64,000 nucleotides of DNA from Desulfomicrobium sp. (lineage in GTDB: Bacteria > Desulfobacterota > Desulfovibrionia > Desulfovibrionales > Desulfomicrobiaceae): contig JAXGMI010000001.1 of the NCBI GenBank assembly GCA_040768745.1, positions 1,184,001 to 1,248,000 on the forward strand, read 5' to 3'. The first letter of the stretch is position 1. Each line of letters starts with the position of its first letter. The notes beneath the pieces are model-generated. The model saw only the letters and a list, made by a program, of their open reading frames with translations. It did not search any database and was not told where the DNA came from. Position numbers and translations under genes: made by a program. This document shows, one piece after another, positions 31,243 through 59,863 of this stretch.

Positions 31243-31560
31243 ATGGCAAATACGCTTACGCCTCGGGAATTGAAGACGCTCATTGCAGCGTCCGACGTCA
31301 CGTTGCTCGATGTCCGTCGCAGGAGCGATCGCGAGTCCGGCCCTGCCGGCATCCCCGGGGCCGTCTGGAAGGACCCGGAGCATGTCGAGGCATGGTCTTC
31401 GGAACTGCCGAAAGACAGGCCGGTGGTCATCTACTGCGTGCGCGGCGGTTCCGTCAGCGCATCGGTGCAGGCCGCGCTGAAGGCAAGGGATTTCGAGGTC
31501 AGGTTCGTGGAAGGCGGGCTGGCCGCCTGGGAAACCCAAGGGTCGGGAGAAGGTGATTGA
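31243..31560 (+). CDS. Rhodanese-domain protein (ChrE-like)
   Basis: LLDVRR, IPGA, VIYCVRGG and VEGGLAAW motifs; AGGAGG RBS; first gene of the chr cluster. Confidence 0.85.
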   Translation: MANTLTPRELKTLIAASDVTLLDVRRRSDRESGPAGIPGAVWKDPEHVEAWSSELPKDRPVVIYCVRGGSVSASVQAALKARDFEVRFVEGGLAAWETQGSGEGD

Positions 31561-31561
31561 G

Positions 31562-32563
31562 ATGGCCGAAGGCAATGACGTGAACTGGCTCCTGTGCATC
31601 CACAACATCCCGCCCAAGCCGGCCTACCTGCGGGCCAAGGCGGCGCGCAGGCTGGCGGCCCTGGGGGCCGTGGCGGTCAAGAACGCCGTCTACGTGCTGC
31701 CCCACGGCGAACGGCAGCGCGACGGGCTGGTCTGGCTGGCCAAGGAGATCGAGGAGGGCGGCGGGCGGGCCTACGTCTGCGGGGCGCGGTTCGACGTGTC
31801 CGGCGGCGGCATCGACGACACCCACATCAGGAGCCTCTTCGTGGACGCCCGCGACGCGGACTACCGCAGCCTCGGCGCGGAGTTTCAGCCCCTTTTCGAG
31901 ACCCTCGGCGACCCGCAGGGTGAAAACGCCCCGGACGCGGCCGAGGTCCAGGGCTGGGTCGGCCAGCTGCGCGCCCGCTACGACGCCGTGCTGGCCATAG
32001 ACTACTTCGGCGCGCCGGGCCGGGAGGTGGTCGAGGGCATCCTGGCCGGGGCAGGGCGCTGGCTGCGCATGAGGGCCCTGACCGGCGGGCCCGGCGACGA
32101 GGTCCTGGACCCTTCCCTGTACCGGGGGAGAACCTGGGTGACCCGGCCCAGCGTGCACGTGGACCGCATCGCCTCGGCCTGGCTCATCCGGCGCTTCATC
32201 GACCCGCAGGCGGCCTTCCGCTTCGACGCCAGGGTCCATGGCCCGGGGGACATCCGCTTCGACATGACCGAGGCCGAATTCACCCACGAGGGCAGCCAGT
32301 GCACCTTCGAGGTCATGGTCCGGCGCTTCGGGTTCGAGTCCGACCCGGCCCTGACGGTCCTGAGCCAGGTCATCCACGACATCGACCTTGACGAGTCCGC
32401 CCCGTCGCGCCCCGAGTCGGCCGGCGTGGCCGCCCTGCTGAACGGCATCTGCCTGTGCACGGACAGCGACCTCGAGCGCGTGGAACGGGGCGGAAGCCTC
32501 CTGGACGGGCTGTTCGAACACTTCGACCGGACCTGCGGCCGCGCGGGGCGGGAGGGCGCATGA
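31562..32563 (+). CDS. chrB: Chromate resistance regulator ChrB
   Basis: AIDYF, WVTRPSVHVDRIASAWLIRRFID, FTHEGSQCTFE and IHDID motifs. Confidence 0.9.
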   Translation: MAEGNDVNWLLCIHNIPPKPAYLRAKAARRLAALGAVAVKNAVYVLPHGERQRDGLVWLAKEIEEGGGRAYVCGARFDVSGGGIDDTHIRSLFVDARDADYRSLGAEFQPLFETLGDPQGENAPDAAEVQGWVGQLRARYDAVLAIDYFGAPGREVVEGILAGAGRWLRMRALTGGPGDEVLDPSLYRGRTWVTRPSVHVDRIASAWLIRRFIDPQAAFRFDARVHGPGDIRFDMTEAEFTHEGSQCTFEVMVRRFGFESDPALTVLSQVIHDIDLDESAPSRPESAGVAALLNGICLCTDSDLERVERGGSLLDGLFEHFDRTCGRAGREGA

Positions 32564-33894
32564 CGACAACGAACCGGTCGACCCTTGCCGAAGCATTTTG
32601 GACCTGGCTGCGCATCGGCTTGCTGAGTTTCGGCGGACCTGCCGGGCAGATCGCCATGATGCACAAGACGCTGGTCGAGGACAAAAAGTGGATCAGCAAC
32701 GAACGCTTCCTGCACGCCCTCAACTACTGCCATTTCCTGCCGGGGCCCGAGGCCCAGCAACTGGCGACGTACGTCGGCTGGCTCAAGCACCGGACGCTGG
32801 GCGGGCTCATGGCCGGCGGCCTTTTCGTGCTGCCGGGGTTTTTCGTCATCCTGGTGCTGAGCGCCCTGTATGCCGCCTACCGTGAAGTGCCGGCGGTTGA
32901 CGCCCTGTTTTACGGTCTCAAACCAGCCGTGCTGGCCATTGTCGTCGGGGCCGTGCTGCGCATGGGGTCCAAGACGTTGAAATCCGGATTCGCCTTGGCT
33001 TTGGCCGCGGTCGCCTTCATGGCCTTGTTCGCGTTTGCCGTGCCGTTCCCCGTGGTGGTCTTCGGTGCGGCCCTGATCGGTTGGGTCCGGTCACGCGGGC
33101 CAGTGGATCAGGCCTGCACCGTTGCCTGCGGGGACGAGGAGGAGGTGCCCGAGCACGCCAAGCCAAGTGCCGCGCGCTCCCTCCGGGTCCTGGTCACCTG
33201 GATTCCCCTGTGGCTCGGTCCGGTGCTGCTCACGGGACTCCTGCTTGGCTGGGACAACGTCTATGCCCGGTTGGCCGTGTTCTTCAGCAAGATGGCCGTG
33301 GTCACCTTCGGCGGGGCCTACGCCGTGCTGAGCTACGTGACCCAGCAGGCGGTGGAGCACTACGCCTGGCTGACCCCGGCGGACATGATCAGCGGGCTGG
33401 CCTTGGCCGAGACCACGCCCGGTCCCCTCATCCTGGTTCTTGAGTACGTCGGCTTCATGGCCGCCTATGCCAGCCCCGGAGCGCTGCATCCCTTCGTCGC
33501 CGGAGCCCTGGGCGCTACCCTGACGGTCTGGGTGACCTTTGCGCCCTGCTTCCTGTGGATCTTTCTCGGCGCGCCCTACATGGAGGCCGTGCGGGCCAAC
33601 CGCAGCCTCTCCGCCGCCCTGTCCGGCGTGACGGCGGCGGTGGTCGGGGTCATCCTGAATCTGTCGGTCTGGTTCGGGCTGCACACGCTCTTCGGCCAGG
33701 TGGGCTCGTGGCATGGCCCCCTGGGGCTGCGCCTGCCGGTTCCCGTCCTGTCCAGCCTGGATTTCTGGGCCCTGGCCCTGGCGGTGGCCGCGACCCTGGC
33801 CATGACCCGCTTCAAGCTCGGCATGGGCGCGACCCTGGCCGGGTGCGCCGGCCTGGGCTGGGCGGTGCGCATGGCGACGCAATCGATCATGTAA
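32560..33894 (+). CDS. chrA: Chromate efflux transporter ChrA
   Basis: SFGGPAGQIA, LPGPEAQQLA, TFGGAYAVL and ETTPGP motifs; ATGA overlap with chrB. Confidence 0.95.
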   Translation: MTTTNRSTLAEAFWTWLRIGLLSFGGPAGQIAMMHKTLVEDKKWISNERFLHALNYCHFLPGPEAQQLATYVGWLKHRTLGGLMAGGLFVLPGFFVILVLSALYAAYREVPAVDALFYGLKPAVLAIVVGAVLRMGSKTLKSGFALALAAVAFMALFAFAVPFPVVVFGAALIGWVRSRGPVDQACTVACGDEEEVPEHAKPSAARSLRVLVTWIPLWLGPVLLTGLLLGWDNVYARLAVFFSKMAVVTFGGAYAVLSYVTQQAVEHYAWLTPADMISGLALAETTPGPLILVLEYVGFMAAYASPGALHPFVAGALGATLTVWVTFAPCFLWIFLGAPYMEAVRANRSLSAALSGVTAAVVGVILNLSVWFGLHTLFGQVGSWHGPLGLRLPVPVLSSLDFWALALAVAATLAMTRFKLGMGATLAGCAGLGWAVRMATQSIM

Positions 33895-34188: not shown

Positions 34189-34509
34189 CTAAAAATTGAT
34201 GATCCTGTCTGCCAGTTTGACCTGCTCATAAAGGAACTTCATGTTCGACAGCCTGACATGTTCGCTCGCGTCCACACCGTGGACGCCCAGGCATTTACCT
34301 CAGGCGGCGAGGACCCCGTCACTCAAGGCGAAGAGTTTGGCCTGCTCTGCCAAGGGGAAGGCCTCGCTGTCACCCGCATACAGATCGACCGCCGGACCAT
34401 TCAGGAAGAGGGTGACGTCCTCGCCTTCGGCCAGCAAAAAGTTGCCGAACCTGACTGCGTTCCATTTTATTTCCGGATCGTTGCTCGAAAGAATGAGAAG
34501 TATCTGCAT
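34189..34509 (-). CDS. DsrE-family selenoprotein (UxxC; Sec codon TGA at 34300-34302)
   Basis: DsrE-like N-terminus; reading through TGA gives AA-U-GKC plus a DsrE-like end (ADRIINF) to TAG at 34189; SECIS-like hairpin follows the TGA. Confidence 0.85.
34268..34286 (-). promoter_or_regulatory. Bacterial SECIS-like hairpin
   Basis: GCGTCCAC-GGT-GTGGACGC; loop starts with G, 21 nt after the UGA. Confidence 0.75.
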
Positions 34510-34672
34510 TGTCACTCCGCGAGAATGTTGAGTTCAGAAATAGATTATGGATTCTTCAGTGTAAAGGTCTGCGTGCGGCGGCTTCTCTATTGAGGACAGT
34601 AGGGATGTGCGGATGAAGCAACGCCCCTTCGGGACTGGACCGGGCTGGCCCGCGCCCAGTACAGGATTGCCC

Positions 34673-35431
34673 ATGGAAAAAGACGCCCTCGACTGCATCG
34701 GATACTGCCGGGATTGCGGGCAGGAGCACTGCCTGCCCGCCGCCCCGGCTCTGGACGCGGCGCGGGAACTCCTGGCCGACATGGAGAGGCACAGAAGCAT
34801 TGGCCTGGGTATGGATGACGACCCGCGCTTGCATCTGGGCTATCTGTCCGGCCCGGCCCGGGGCCAGATGTTCGGGGTGCTGCTCGCCCGCGACGATTCC
34901 GGGCGGGAACACGTGCTGAAGGCTTTTTCCGGTCAGTACAACGGGGTCTGGGAGGTGCCGGGCTGGGTTCCTCCGATTCTCGATCCGGCCGCATTCGAAC
35001 GGGTCATCCAAAGCGATGAGCCGCGCATCAAGGCCCTGACCCGCGAGATAGACCTTCTCGCTTCCACTGCTCCGGTCCGTGTTCGTTTGATGGCGGAGCG
35101 ACGGCAACTCTCCCAAGGCCTCATGGCCCGCATCTTCGATCTCTACTGGCTGACCAATTTACGGGGCCAGACCCGTTCCCTGGCCGAGATCTTCCTCGGT
35201 TCGGGCATGCCCACGGGCACGGGCGAATGCTGCGCGCCCAAGCTCCTGCATTTTGCGGCCACCCATGGGCTCATACCCGTGGGGCTGGCCGAATTCTACG
35301 TGGGCCGCGAGAACCGCTCCGGCACCCGCAGCCACGGCGAGTTTTATGCCCCATGCGCGGAAAAGTGCCGGCCGATTTTAGGATTTCTGCTTTGCGGCAG
35401 GGATCGTCACGGCGAAGACACATCGCGGTGA
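34673..35431 (+). CDS. Stand-alone homologue of the N-terminal (deaminase-like) domain of long RluA/TrcP-type enzymes
   Basis: GQMFGVL, AFSG, WVPP, GTGECCAPKLL, LAEFY and FYAPCAEKCRPILG motifs; no pseudouridine synthase domain; alternative start 34607. Confidence 0.7.
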   Translation: MEKDALDCIGYCRDCGQEHCLPAAPALDAARELLADMERHRSIGLGMDDDPRLHLGYLSGPARGQMFGVLLARDDSGREHVLKAFSGQYNGVWEVPGWVPPILDPAAFERVIQSDEPRIKALTREIDLLASTAPVRVRLMAERRQLSQGLMARIFDLYWLTNLRGQTRSLAEIFLGSGMPTGTGECCAPKLLHFAATHGLIPVGLAEFYVGRENRSGTRSHGEFYAPCAEKCRPILGFLLCGRDRHGEDTSR

Positions 35432-35543
35432 CGGATTGTGTCTGGCACAAAATGCGGGTTTGAAGGCCTTCGGAGGCGACACGGCTGTTTAACTGGGTTC
35501 TCTGATCCTTGCCACCCTGTCGGTCTTGCGGCAAGCCTTCCCC

Positions 35544-36920
35544 ATGCCAGTCACAACCACCAGGACCATCTACCGGCGCATCCTGAAGGTTTCCATGCCG
35601 CTGGTGGCCAGTCTGGCGGCGACCACGGTCATGGAGTTCACGGACCGCCTGTTTCTGGCCCGCTATTCCCTGGACGCCATTGCCGCCGCCACGCCGGCCG
35701 GAATCATGGCCCTGCTGGCCATGACCATCTTTGTCGGCACGGCCGGGTATGTGGCGGTTTTCGTCGCCCAGTACAAGGGACAGGGGCGCTACGACCTGAT
35801 TGGCCGCATCGTCTGGCAGGGCGTCTATGTCGCGGCTTTGGGCGCCGTGGTTCTGGGGGCGCTGGCCCTGCGTGCCGAGGATATCTTCCGCTGGGGCGGG
35901 CATCCGGAGGTCTTGCGGGATCTGGAGGCGACCTATTTCCGCGTGCTGTGCTGGGGCGCCGGCATCCACCTGCTTGGCGCGGCCCTGGGCGGATTCTTCA
36001 CCGGCCTGGGCCGTACGCGCGTGGTCATGCTGGCCAACGTGACCGGAATGGTCGTGAACATTCCCCTGGACTACTGCCTGATCAACGGCGTCGGTCCATT
36101 TCCGCAGTGGGGCATTTTCGGGGCAGGCTTGGCCACGGCCATGAGCTGGGGGGTAATCACGCTCATCCTGGGTCTGGCCATGCTCCGGCCGGAACACGCC
36201 GGATTTCGCTTCCGCTCGGACTGGGGCTTCCGTTTCCGGCTCTGGCTACGCCTGCTGCGTTACGGTCTGCCCAGCGGCATGGAATTCTTTCTCGACATCC
36301 TCGGTTTCACGGTCTTCGTTTTCGTGGTCGGCCGTCTGGGCACCCTGGAACTGGCCGCGACCAATATCGCCCTCAATGTCAACGCCCTGGCCTTCATGCC
36401 CCTGGTTGGCTTTTCCATGGGCACCAGCACCCTGGTCGGCCAGGCCATGGGCGCGGGCCGTCCGGACGAGGTGCCCATGGTCGTGCGCGCCAGCCTGATC
36501 CTGACCTTTGCCTATCTGGGCGCGCTGTCGGCGATCTTCCTTCTGGCGCCCGGTCCCGTACTGTACCTGTTCCAGCCGCGTGACATGGACCCGGCTGCCT
36601 TTGCTGCCGTGGCCGAGATGGGCCGGGTCCTGCTCATGATCGTGGTCGCCTACCTCTTTTTCGACGGGGTCAGCTTCATCGTCTACGCCGCCCTGAAAGG
36701 GGCCGGGGACACCATGTTTGTCATGGTCTCGCGTCTCGGGCTGGTGCTGGCGGTCATGGTCGGACCACTGGTCCTCGGGGTGTGGCTGGGTCTGGGCCTG
36801 TATTATTTCTGGGGCGTGAGCTGCACCTTTCTGGTGCTCTTGTCCGTGGTCGGCTGGTGGCGCTACAGGCAGGGCAAGTGGCGGAACATGCTGGTGGTCG
36901 AGTGGACGCGACCCCAGTAA
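35544..36920 (+). CDS. MATE family efflux transporter
   Basis: FTDRLFLA, VAQYKG, NIPLDYCLING, GAGLAT and ALKGAGDT motifs; about 12 TM. Confidence 0.92.
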   Translation: MPVTTTRTIYRRILKVSMPLVASLAATTVMEFTDRLFLARYSLDAIAAATPAGIMALLAMTIFVGTAGYVAVFVAQYKGQGRYDLIGRIVWQGVYVAALGAVVLGALALRAEDIFRWGGHPEVLRDLEATYFRVLCWGAGIHLLGAALGGFFTGLGRTRVVMLANVTGMVVNIPLDYCLINGVGPFPQWGIFGAGLATAMSWGVITLILGLAMLRPEHAGFRFRSDWGFRFRLWLRLLRYGLPSGMEFFLDILGFTVFVFVVGRLGTLELAATNIALNVNALAFMPLVGFSMGTSTLVGQAMGAGRPDEVPMVVRASLILTFAYLGALSAIFLLAPGPVLYLFQPRDMDPAAFAAVAEMGRVLLMIVVAYLFFDGVSFIVYAALKGAGDTMFVMVSRLGLVLAVMVGPLVLGVWLGLGLYYFWGVSCTFLVLLSVVGWWRYRQGKWRNMLVVEWTRPQ

Positions 36921-37161: not shown

Positions 37162-37857
37162 ATGGCCCAGAAGATAGTGGTCGTCGAGGACGAGCCTGAC
37201 ATCGCCAACCTGTTGGCGTTCCATCTGAAGTCCAACGGGTATGACTGTTTTGTCGTCCGCGATGGGAAAAAGGGGCTGCAATTGGCCCAGACCGAACGGC
37301 CGGATCTGGTTTTACTGGACCTCATGCTGCCGGGCATGAGCGGGGTCGATGTCTGCAAGGCGTTGAAAGGCGCTGCCGAAACGTCGCACATTCCTATTGT
37401 CATGCTGACAGCCAGAGGAGATGAAGTGGACCGGATTCTCGGTTTTGAACTCGGGGTCGACGATTACGTGGTCAAGCCATTCAGTCCGCGGGAACTGATG
37501 CTGCGGATCAAGACAGTGCTGCGTCGTAACGCGAACATCCAGCCCAAGGTCGCTCATTGGCAGCGAGAGGGCCTGGTGGCAGATTTCGAGGCCTATGCCT
37601 TGCTGGTGGACGGCGAAGATGCGCATCTGACCCCTACGGAATTCAATCTGCTGGGAGAGTTCATCCGCAACGAGGGCAAGGTTCTGTCCCGCGAGCAGCT
37701 GCTGAGCAATGCCTGGGGCTATGAATTCGAAGGCTACTCGCGCACCGTGGATACCCATGTCCGCCGCCTGCGCAAGAAACTCGGGCCCTATGCCGACTGG
37801 CTGGAGACGGTCCGCGGCATCGGGTACCGCATGAAACGTGAAAATCAGGCGGATTGA
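37162..37857 (+). CDS. phoB: OmpR-family response regulator PhoB
   Basis: VVEDE, LLDLMLP, KPFSPREL, RTVDTHVRRLRKKL and ETVRGIGY motifs; precedes phoR-pstB-phoU. Confidence 0.9.
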   Translation: MAQKIVVVEDEPDIANLLAFHLKSNGYDCFVVRDGKKGLQLAQTERPDLVLLDLMLPGMSGVDVCKALKGAAETSHIPIVMLTARGDEVDRILGFELGVDDYVVKPFSPRELMLRIKTVLRRNANIQPKVAHWQREGLVADFEAYALLVDGEDAHLTPTEFNLLGEFIRNEGKVLSREQLLSNAWGYEFEGYSRTVDTHVRRLRKKLGPYADWLETVRGIGYRMKRENQAD

Positions 37858-39680
37858 GGCTTGGCATGATAGCAACCACATTTTCCCTCCGTGACCGGCT
37901 GGCCCTGTCATTCGGCCTCATCCTTCTGCTGACCATGGGGCTTCCCTTGTACTATCTGCACCGACATCTGGAGCAGACTGTGGAGCAGGAGGCCAGGGAG
38001 GGCGCGTTGAGGGATCTCCGGGCCGTGGACTGGGTGCTGCTGACCAGCAGGTCGCCCTCGCTGGAAGCGCTGGGGGAGACCCTGCGCACCCTGGCCGCGC
38101 GCATGGATCTGCGCATCACCTACATGGACGAGTCAGGCAGGGTCTTGACTGACTCAGGGATGACCAAGGATCAGGTCGGTCAGCTCGAAAGCCATCTGCA
38201 ACGGCCCGAAGTTGCAGAGGCGGTGGCCCGGGGAGCAGGCACAAGCATGCGCTACAGCGACACCCTGGGGCAGTATTTGATGTATGCGGCCCAGACCCAC
38301 TCCGGCCATGGAGAGGTGTCCATGGGCATACTGCGCATTGCGCGACCCATGAGCCAGATACGGGGCACCACAGACCGCCTCTACGGGCGAGCCGGCTGGG
38401 TAATGGCCGGCAGCATCCTGCTGGCTTTTGCCCTTGCCTCTCTGGTGTCCCGGTATGTTGTCCGGTCCATCTCATCGGTGGCCCAGGCCGCTTCGGATAT
38501 CGGCCAGGGCGACCCGGGCAGGCGCATTCGGATTTCTCCCAGCAAGGAGCTCGCCCCTCTGGTATCGGCATTCAACAACATGGCCGAGCGCATTGAGCTC
38601 AACGTGCAGACCATCACCAAGCAGAAAATGGAGTCCGAGGCCGTCCTGAACGGAATGAAGGCCGGGGTCATCGTGCTGGACGGGAGAGGGCATATCCTGC
38701 GCGGCAACTATGCGGCCCAGGAAATTTTTCCTGGTCTTCCGGCCTACGCCGGCCGGAAGCCCATGGAGGTCGCCCGCATCCAGGATTTGCAGGACGCGTG
38801 CGACGCGGCCTTGTCCCGCCGCAAGGCAGGGGATTTTTCCCAGGCCAGTCTGGAAGTGAATCTGCAGAGCGGGAAATGGTTTGAAGTTTCCATCGTCCCG
38901 ATCAAGGGTGATGCGGAACCTGGGGCCATCATGGTCTTTCACGACATAACCGAGATCAGGCGGGTGGAGCAGATCCGCCGAGACTTCGTAGCCAATGTCT
39001 CCCATGAACTGCGCACGCCGTTGACCTCGATCAAGGGATATGCCGAAACCCTGATGGCCATGGATGCATACGATGCGGAGCTAACGAGATCCTTTCTGGA
39101 AGTCATTCTGCGCAACGGCAACCACATGAACGCCATGCTCGACGACCTGCTGCAGCTTTCCCGCCTGGAGCATGCCAAACAGCGGTTGGACGTGATCGCG
39201 GTGGATCCGTCCTCGGCCATGTATTCGGCCTGGAAAAGCTGTCAGCCCCTGCGCAAGCATATCGATTTCATCAACGACGTGCCCGAGTCCGCCCCACCGG
39301 TGCGTGCCAACTTCGAGCAGTTGGTGCAGGTTTTCCGCAACGTCCTGGAGAACGCGGTCAAGTACGTGCCCGAGGCCAACGCCAGGATTCACGTACATGC
39401 CGCCGTCAACGGTTCCAGTCTGGATATCTGCATTGATGACAACGGGGCGGGCATTCCCCGGGAGGATCAGGCCCGAATTTTCGAACGTTTCTACCGGGTA
39501 GAAAAGGACCGCAACAGCGCTGTGGGCGGTACCGGTCTGGGTCTGGCCATCTGCCGCCACATCATGGTCAACCATGGCGGCCGGATCACGGCCCAGAGCC
39601 CGGTGCCGGAGACGGGCACCGGATCCAGATTCATCATCACATTGCCCCTGGCCGGGCAGAGCGCAGAGGAAAAGTCATGA
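37854..39680 (+). CDS. phoR: Phosphate sensor histidine kinase PhoR
   Basis: 2 [25 protein letters not shown]-box, [15 protein letters not shown]. Confidence 0.88.
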
Positions 39681-59603: not shown

Positions 59604-59681
59604 TGGCGTCCCCAAGGGGATTTGAACCCCTGTTATCGGCGTGAAAGGCCGGTGTCCTGGACCTAGCTAGACGATGGGGAC
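59604..59681 (-). tRNA. tRNA-Glu(TTC)
   Basis: GTCCCCA...CCGGC-CTTTCAC-GCCGA...GGTTCAAATCC...TGGGGACGCCA cloverleaf with encoded CCA. Confidence 0.93.
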
Positions 59682-59702
59682 GCAGGCTGCGTCGAGAAAA
59701 AG

Positions 59703-59778
59703 TGGCGTCCCCAAGGGGGTTTGAACCCCTGTTAGCGGCGTGAGAGGCCGCCGTCCTAGGCCACTAGACGATGGGGAC
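59703..59778 (-). tRNA. tRNA-Glu(CTC)
   Basis: GCGGC-CTCTCAC-GCCGC anticodon arm, T-loop TTCAAAC, CCA end. Confidence 0.95.
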
Positions 59779-59787
59779 GCATGTATT

Positions 59788-59863
59788 TGGTGGGCCGTGA
59801 AGGGATCGAACCTTCGACTCTCTGCTTAAAAGGCAGATACTCTACCGTCTGAGTTAACGGCCC
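59788..59863 (-). tRNA. tRNA-Lys(TTT)
   Basis: GGGCCGT...TCTGC-CTTTTAA-GCAGA...TTCGATC...ACGGCCCACCA. Confidence 0.95.

Follow-up and report, generated by a model that had tools for sequence, protein, structure and literature searches.

A TrcP-type cytidine deaminase without an adjacent pseudouridine synthase in Desulfomicrobium, a candidate free-standing tRNA C-to-U editor

TrcP and the Desulfomicrobium locus

Among bacterial tRNA C-to-U editors, only TrcP from Vibrio cholerae has, to our knowledge, been characterised. The E. coli enzyme RluA is the synthase for pseudouridine-32 in tRNA and for pseudouridine-746 in 23S rRNA. TrcP (VCA0104) was shown to convert C32 of tRNA-Tyr to pseudouridine (Kimura et al., 2022; PMC9553926). 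Its CDA (cytidine deaminase) domain consists of residues 1-114 and 250-339 with a long helical tRNA-tethering domain between the two halves; zinc is bound by C282, C324 and C328 and E303 is the catalytic glutamate (PMC9553926). The isolated N-terminal part (TrcP-NTD) is sufficient for full conversion of C32 to U in vitro, and V. cholerae NTD and CTD supplied as separate proteins formed no pseudouridine (PMC9553926). RluA is normally inactive on tRNA-Tyr and a TrcP-NTD-RluA chimera pseudouridylates U32 of this tRNA (PMC9553926). All homologues are said to carry both NTD and CTD, and it was argued that their linkage is necessary for substrate channelling (PMC9553926). Supplementary Data 7 contains Desulfomicrobium 'hypothetical proteins' that match V. 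cholerae TrcP-NTD with E-values of 1e-20 to 1e-16, and in Supplementary Data 8 D. baculatum is scored as being without homologue (PMC9553926). The family was therefore touched there but not described (PMC9553926). A description of unfused or split TrcP forms was found neither in a literature search nor in the available text of PMC9553926.

The DNA analysed here, referred to as the window, is a stretch of 64,000 nucleotides from Desulfomicrobium sp. Translation of the deaminase gene yields 252 residues followed by TGA (Table 1). An alternative GTG start at 34607 would add 22 residues, and the alignments of relatives begin at residues 1-7 of the 252-aa ORF. A first-pass annotation, made from the sequence alone, had reported a series of TrcP-like motifs, and the full series is present in the translation: a script located GQMFGVL at residue 64, AFSG at 84, WVPP at 98, ERRQLS at 142, GECCAPK at 184, AEFY at 206 and PCAEKC at 227, and NLRGQTRSLAEIF, the remainder of GTGECCAPKLL and FYAPCAEKCRPILGFL were found by eye. 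The ORF was also said to end shortly after PCxxxC, and the stop indeed lies 20 residues beyond C232.

The absence of a pseudouridine synthase, claimed in the same annotation, holds as well: none is fused or adjacent, the 252-aa protein has no PF00849 match, and a tblastn search with 165 TrcP-type synthase tails against the whole window revealed no synthase remnant, the best score being 28.5 bits. The deaminase ORF is followed after 94 nt by a gene for a MATE efflux protein.

The divergently transcribed neighbour had been described as a selenoprotein gene, which is plausible. The ORF at 34192-34515 (-) is DsrE/DsrF-like and reaches its full length of 108 aa only if the in-frame TGA codon 72 is read as selenocysteine; the read-through ORF matches Pfam DsrE with 32.6 bits over residues 5-108 and contains the motif AA-U-GKC, and the source genome carries a tRNA-SeC gene. 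Other genomes of the genus do not have this selenoprotein candidate next to their deaminase gene. Further upstream, window positions 31553-33894 (+) encode a ChrB-like regulator (31553-32563) and the chromate transporter ChrA (32455-33894). These genes are located in a region of raised G+C content (0.65-0.68 over 26-34 kb versus 0.53-0.59 in the first 26 kb) that may be an acquired chromate-resistance segment. Downstream, at 37162-39680 (+), an OmpR/PhoB-type response regulator (Pfam Response_reg and Trans_reg_C) overlaps by 4 nt with an ORF of 608 aa, which from its sequence is a putative sensor histidine kinase; both are also found in the locus of the closest relative (L011). A toxin-type deaminase was considered and rejected, as no adjacent immunity-like gene or secretion domain was noticed.

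Table 1. Features of the deaminase locus, with positions in the window.
Feature	Position	Strand	Basis or remark
AGGA, likely ribosome-binding site 7 nt ahead of ATG 34673	34663..34666	+	read from sequence
Orphan TrcP-NTD-type cytidine deaminase ORF (predicted), 252 aa and TGA stop	34673..35431	+	ORF, homologues, AF2 model
CRDCGQEHC, residues 12-20, turn between two short strands	34706..34732	+	C12, C15 and H19 are proposed zinc ligands
Helical hairpin inside the globular domain, residues 105-155	34985..35137	+	short counterpart of the TrcP tRNA-tethering helical domain
Predicted catalytic core: C186, E207, C228, C232	35228..35368	+	spacing and invariance compared with TrcP
C241, proposed fourth ligand of the CCHC site	35393..35395	+	conservation and co-variation
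MATE efflux gene, occupies the synthase slot of relatives	35526..36920	+	Pfam MatE, 160 bits; context, not part of the enzyme

Homology, catalytic residues and predicted fold

At E<=1e-3, a word-indexed search with the 252-aa protein yielded 1460 matches in the size range of 138-441 aa and 950 in that of 442-2000 aa, and an exhaustive search yielded 1289 cluster representatives; with such large numbers of matching proteins the motif series is not due to chance. The best short relatives are 'hypothetical proteins' of about 250 aa from Desulfomicrobium, other Desulfovibrionales and cable bacteria. One of these proteins (P0051), 66% identical to the 252-aa protein, shares its species name with one match in Supplementary Data 7 of PMC9553926. 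The long relatives, among the matches listed, cover 41-98% of the query (most of them more than 75%) with 39-57% identity, and 119 of the 120 that were listed out of the 950 contain PF00849, the RluA-type pseudouridine synthase domain. For fused RluA proteins E-values of 1.6e-70 to 4.6e-41 against the 252-aa protein were obtained. PF00849 was furthermore found in 39 of 144 representatives scanned out of the best 150 of the 1289.

The assignment to the TrcP-NTD type made in the first-pass annotation is borne out, the homology being clear and the zinc and glutamate residues being in register: C186, E207, C228 and C232 show the spacing (21/42/46) of C282, E303, C324 and C328 in TrcP. Conservation of these residues was analysed in an HMM alignment of 468 homologues, in which proteins with a tail of at least 150 residues were taken as fused (169) and those with a tail of fewer than 40 residues as unfused (293). 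No fused homologue lacks any of the four residues (169 of 169), and among the 293 unfused ones each is kept in 289-291 (E207 in 290), the exceptions being gaps in fragments. The ORF is an intact, selection-maintained member of the TrcP N-terminal cytidine deaminase family, and its subgroup is distinguished by a helical hairpin that is short and by an additional CCHC motif.

The 252-aa protein does not fall into the classical CDA family (PF00383): it has no match to the profile, it contains PCxxxC and it lacks the [HC]xE motif. In classical CDAs the glutamate lies within [HC]xE, whereas here the predicted catalytic glutamate is on a strand 21 residues past the first cysteine, and the helical insert and the N-terminal knuckle are further differences. 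Blasticidin S deaminase and the tetrameric cytidine deaminases of PF00383 show no detectable sequence similarity to it, and the four PF00383 proteins of the source genome are encoded elsewhere. The 252-aa protein matched no family of Pfam or NCBIfam at E<=10 and no PDB sequence, and nothing links it by sequence to classical deaminases. In profile searches against PDB, alignment A1 matched a designed ThreeFoil protein (E 0.0015, no significant single stretch), and alignment A3 gave no match.

An AlphaFold2 model built from an 84-row alignment has a mean pLDDT of 95.4. It starts with a beta-hairpin (strands 8-12 and 17-21), helix 24-40 and strands 64-73 and 79-85, continues with helices 105-128 and 134-155, two short strands and helix 187-197, which is headed by C186, and ends with strand 201-211, which carries E207, and helix 233-240 headed by PC228xxxC232. 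The predicted zinc ligands are thereby placed at the N-termini of two helices that flank one strand. Such a helix-strand-helix placing of the zinc ligands is typical of deaminases. Foldseek searches of the PDB with the whole model and with its C-terminal half gave no match at E<=0.001, a VIA-align search with the whole model matched only helical hairpins (over residues 103-159), and the ESM Atlas returned only the deaminase's own family. The fold searches resulted in one weak structural match, to a small-molecule deaminase.

The short helical linker suggested earlier is recovered in the model as the two helices 105-128 and 134-155. An insert splitting the globular domain is thus shared with TrcP, as are the homologous CDA domain and the spacing of the zinc-binding cysteines and the glutamate. 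In contrast to TrcP, with three long helices and an insert of at least 130 residues, the hairpin here has two helices of about 22 residues and the insert about 85 residues, and the protein lacks a synthase domain and the locus an adjacent synthase gene. Among the 468 homologues, WVPP and the first zinc cysteine are fewer than 100 residues apart in 394 and at least 130 residues apart in 56.

The extra N-terminal CxxC-x3-HC motif pointed out in the first-pass annotation is present at residues 12-20, but it is not special to unfused forms, and C20 has to be removed from it: this residue is not conserved, and the partner of CxxC-x3-H is C241 and not the adjacent C20. In alignment A1, conservation reaches at least 90% at each of C12, C15, H19 and C241. 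They also co-vary, all four being present in 308 sequences and neither the CCH triad nor C241 in 96, with CCH lacking C241 in 7 and C241 lacking CCH in 8. It is proposed from this pattern that the four residues form a structural CCHC zinc knuckle, which would tie the N-terminal hairpin to the C-terminal helix. As CxxC-x3-H occurs in 72 of 169 fused homologues, 70 of which also have C241, it marks a subgroup and not the unfused state. The motif is mostly missing from the long-insert fused clade.

Arrangement in relatives and retention in the genus

For the architecture survey the best 80 genome loci were used; reading frames were followed and flanks were searched with the 165 synthase tails of fused homologues. 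A true fusion is present in nine loci, one of which is cut by a contig end (L061 and L088 are counted as fusions by reading frame). A separate RluA-type ORF starts at or overlaps the CDA stop in 47 loci and lies nearly always in another frame than the CDA, no synthase is found within at least 900 nt downstream in 18, the flank is too short in four and two run off the contig. The two-gene operon, found in 47 of 80 loci, is accordingly the usual state among close relatives, and the split operon as the majority form appears to be unreported, PMC9553926 making no mention of it. The stand-alone architecture put forward in the first-pass annotation consequently stands for this gene and for its genus, but most close relatives outside the genus have an RluA-type gene directly downstream or fused. 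An RluA domain downstream in relatives, which that annotation would have taken as a sign of truncation, is therefore found in part, as a separate ORF in 47 and as a fusion in 9 of the 80 loci. Apart from lineage-specific synteny no neighbours are conserved; the largest clusters occur in 23, 15 and 14 of the 80 loci. In one Maridesulfovibrio genome, a dedicated synthase is encoded about 17 kb from the deaminase.

Split operons and short-hairpin fusions occur in Desulfobulbales, Desulfovibrionaceae, Spirochaetota, Kiritimatiellota and Myxococcota. These forms share the subgroup (42-67% identity), the short hairpin and, for the most part, the CCHC motif with the deaminase of the window, but have retained a dedicated RluA-type synthase, which has been lost in the genus of the window. 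In a FastTree analysis of 121 CDA domains, which included 35 randomly drawn fused proteins and from which the off-contig and short-flank loci and 16 of the 22 genus loci are absent, the fusions with a long insert are united in a single clade (16 rows, support 99). The remaining 105 rows are short-hairpin forms, among which fused, split and orphan arrangements are intermingled. The deaminase of the window belongs to a genus clade of 8 rows that contains orphans only (support 100) and is nested within relatives with split operons from the same family and order. Bacteroidota, Fibrobacterota and one unclassified bacterium make up another orphan clade of 8 rows (support 99). At least seven changes of the orphan label are forced by the starred branches of this tree. 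Tree and locus arrangements point to two genes or a fusion as the normal state of the family, from which the orphan state is derived.

Adjacent synthase ORFs that look frameshifted or shortened were seen in two to four loci. Among these are L026 and L086, in which the synthase behind the deaminase looks broken or frameshifted, with matches over two frames and ORFs of 71 and 122 aa. The two loci may be intermediates toward the orphan state or assembly errors.

Retention of the gene was followed in an order sample of 151 genomes, 34 of which have it. Within the genus it is found in 23 of the 24 other genomes with 64-77% identity. Of 22 genus loci 18 have a flank of at least 1100 nt; none of the 18 has a synthase behind the deaminase, and in 14 of them the MATE gene follows downstream. 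Among the 23 matching genomes, 22 have an intact reading frame, although in two of these 22 (G033 and G132) it is cut by a contig end. The exception, G043, has only a 51-residue deaminase piece with an internal TAG, and in G110 (91% complete) neither the deaminase nor a canonical RluA was found. Both cases may reflect joint loss and decay or assembly gaps. The median dN/dS is 0.235 over 170 pairs of 19 genus sequences (the window and 18 of the 22 loci), and a value of about 0.23 represents purifying selection with moderate constraint only. A reading of the ORF as truncation or pseudogene was rejected, since intact copies occur throughout the genus and no remnant of a synthase was found in the window.

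Partner synthases, candidate tRNA target and competing readings

Nine PF00849 genes are encoded in the source genome. All 165 TrcP-type tails match best at G000 C2:546946-547644, with a median of 146 bits compared to 90 for the next gene. The encoded protein reaches 263.9 bits on the NCBIfam RluA equivalog NF007543 (cut-off 286). A quick tree, based on 35 of the 165 fused and 41 of the 47 adjacent sequences, places it with E. coli RluA (SH-aLRT 98); the fused and adjacent synthases make up a clade of 73 rows (support 89) to which it does not belong. Thus, a dedicated TrcP-type synthase was not found in the source genome, and the best match is an unlinked canonical RluA on contig C2. This gene is orthologue-like with respect to E. 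coli RluA and in principle able to act on U32, but it is separate from the deaminase, on another contig and outside the TrcP-type synthase clade. A complex prediction for the deaminase with the genome's own RluA, run without controls, scored 0.00 against a mark of 0.32. Outside the window, at G000 C2:469507-471225 (-), a protein of 572 aa combines an RluD-like synthase with a C-terminal P-loop part (GLTGAAGSGKS) that from its sequence looks like a dephospho-CoA kinase.

In the order sample, scores on the RluA model fall into three classes. Values of 216-267 bits are obtained for the window's genome, for 23 of the 24 other genus genomes and for two sister-genus genomes without deaminase. Eleven genomes score 139-163 bits, namely all ten deaminase-bearing genomes outside the genus and one with a match at a contig start. 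Scores of 116-136 bits come almost all from frames of 447-818 aa (one of 270 aa) and represent a widespread RluD-like fusion. Every CDA-bearing genome of the order sample, 34 of 34, has an RluA-subfamily enzyme, ten of the TrcP type and 24 canonical (the genus), these genomes being kin, so that the number of independent events is small. A best score of 87-99 bits, in neither class, was obtained for each of five further orphan genomes (Pedobacter, two other Bacteroidota, a Fibrobacteria MAG and a Desulfurivibrionaceae MAG); they lack an RluA-type enzyme, and the synthase may hence not be needed.

The tRNA-Tyr of the source genome has the loop CUGUAAA with C32 and A37, and miaA and miaB are present. 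The C32 loop together with miaA/miaB matches the substrate context reported for V. cholerae (PMC9553926). As C32 is found in 41 of 63 predicted tRNAs, the target site is not pinned down. The comparison of RNA with the genome that had been suggested as a check for C-to-U sites did not reveal editing: tRNA-Tyr position 32 (L145:607) is covered in metatranscriptome contigs of three of four runs (X1, X2 and X7) and no letter but C is read, and for none of the four runs, which come from two studies, is a C-to-T change listed within the tRNA Thr-Tyr-Gly stretch of 1201 nt. The unedited contigs are weak evidence against constitutive editing of tRNA Thr-Tyr-Gly, as contigs drop minor variants and may originate from precursors, DNA or other strains, and as editing is perhaps conditional. 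A T32 tRNA-Tyr pattern matched 10 of 151 genomes, which is the level of the reversed-pattern control.

By homology with TrcP, zinc bound to C186, C228 and C232 is predicted to activate a water molecule, with E207 predicted to shuttle the proton. A cytidine of a folded tRNA, held in part by the basic helical hairpin, would be deaminated to uridine, the likeliest edited site being the anticodon-loop C32 and the first candidate being tRNA-Tyr with its loop CUGUAAA. The dedicated RluA-type synthase that most relatives have in fused form or as the next gene would then convert U32 to pseudouridine. As this partner is gone in the genus, the product would be either U32 or, if the unlinked canonical RluA acts on it in trans, pseudouridine, and as the hairpin is much shorter than the tRNA-Tyr-tethering domain of TrcP, the target may differ. 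By analogy with V. cholerae TrcP, the protein is probably a Zn-dependent tRNA C-to-U editor. A broader reading, to which slightly less than an even chance is given, is that bacterial C-to-U tRNA editing can be free-standing, in this genus and, independently, in the clade of Bacteroidota and Fibrobacterota that lacks RluA-type enzymes, leaving U and not pseudouridine; the TrcP system would be modular, its fused, split and orphan forms changing repeatedly into one another, with the split form and not the published fusion commonest among relatives.

It is possible, if rather doubtful, that the orphan instead performs one half of a two-enzyme route from C to pseudouridine, making U32 on which the unlinked canonical RluA, in a complex with the deaminase or not, replaces the lost synthase. 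After editing, the tRNA-Tyr loop would read UUGUAAA, which fits the preferred loop of RluA. The RluA-subfamily enzyme in all 34 CDA-bearing genomes of the order sample and the lack of both genes in G110 agree with such a pairing, but the co-occurring genomes are kin and not independent, and the five other orphan genomes have no RluA-type enzyme. Moreover, the sister genus (G023, G122) has canonical RluA without the deaminase, so that RluA may serve ordinary targets only. In V. cholerae, the TrcP-NTD-RluA chimera acting on tRNA-Tyr U32 speaks for this route, but the lack of pseudouridine with NTD and CTD apart, together with the normal inactivity of RluA on tRNA-Tyr, argues against completion in trans (PMC9553926). 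An active deaminase with a different substrate, such as another tRNA or position, rRNA, mRNA, a free nucleoside or an antibiotic-like cytosine compound as for blasticidin S deaminase, is unlikely. In its favour, the hairpin is short and a putative zinc knuckle is added compared with TrcP proper, C32 is unedited in the tRNA-Tyr contigs, the one weak structural match is to a small-molecule deaminase and a MATE efflux gene adjoins the deaminase in 14 of 18 genus loci. However, the MATE linkage is limited to the genus (five other loci have a MATE gene 3-5 kb upstream), and the subgroup is linked to RNA because most relatives have this short-hairpin CCHC form in one protein or one operon with an RNA pseudouridine synthase. 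Finally, loss of the partner synthase, a dN/dS of 0.23 that is not very low, the G043 fragment with its internal TAG and the unedited RNA contigs would be in line with a relic that no longer edits and is slowly decaying or kept for an RNA-binding or chaperone role. This is regarded as quite improbable, as the frame is intact in 22 of 23 matching genus genomes, the catalytic cysteines and glutamate are invariant, the orphan state has persisted through a genus-wide radiation at 64-77% identity, and Bacteroidota and Fibrobacterota have an orphan clade of their own (8 rows).

In the nearest relatives, deaminase and synthase are mostly encoded as separate genes, which bears on the claim in PMC9553926 that the two domains always occur together. 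Whole lineages keep the deaminase under selection after loss of the dedicated synthase, some of them without any RluA-type enzyme. If the orphan enzymes are active as the preferred reading of tRNA C-to-U editing suggests, bacterial tRNA C-to-U recoding would be more widespread and more modular than reported, and these proteins of about 250 residues would constitute compact natural RNA cytidine deaminases that are convenient for biochemistry. With the orphan lineages, nature also provides a clean test of whether the edit requires pseudouridylation in order to function.

A tRNA cluster is encoded in the window at 59604-59863 (-) (C1:1243604-1243863); its tRNAs, Glu(TTC), Glu(CTC) and Lys(TTT), each have C32.
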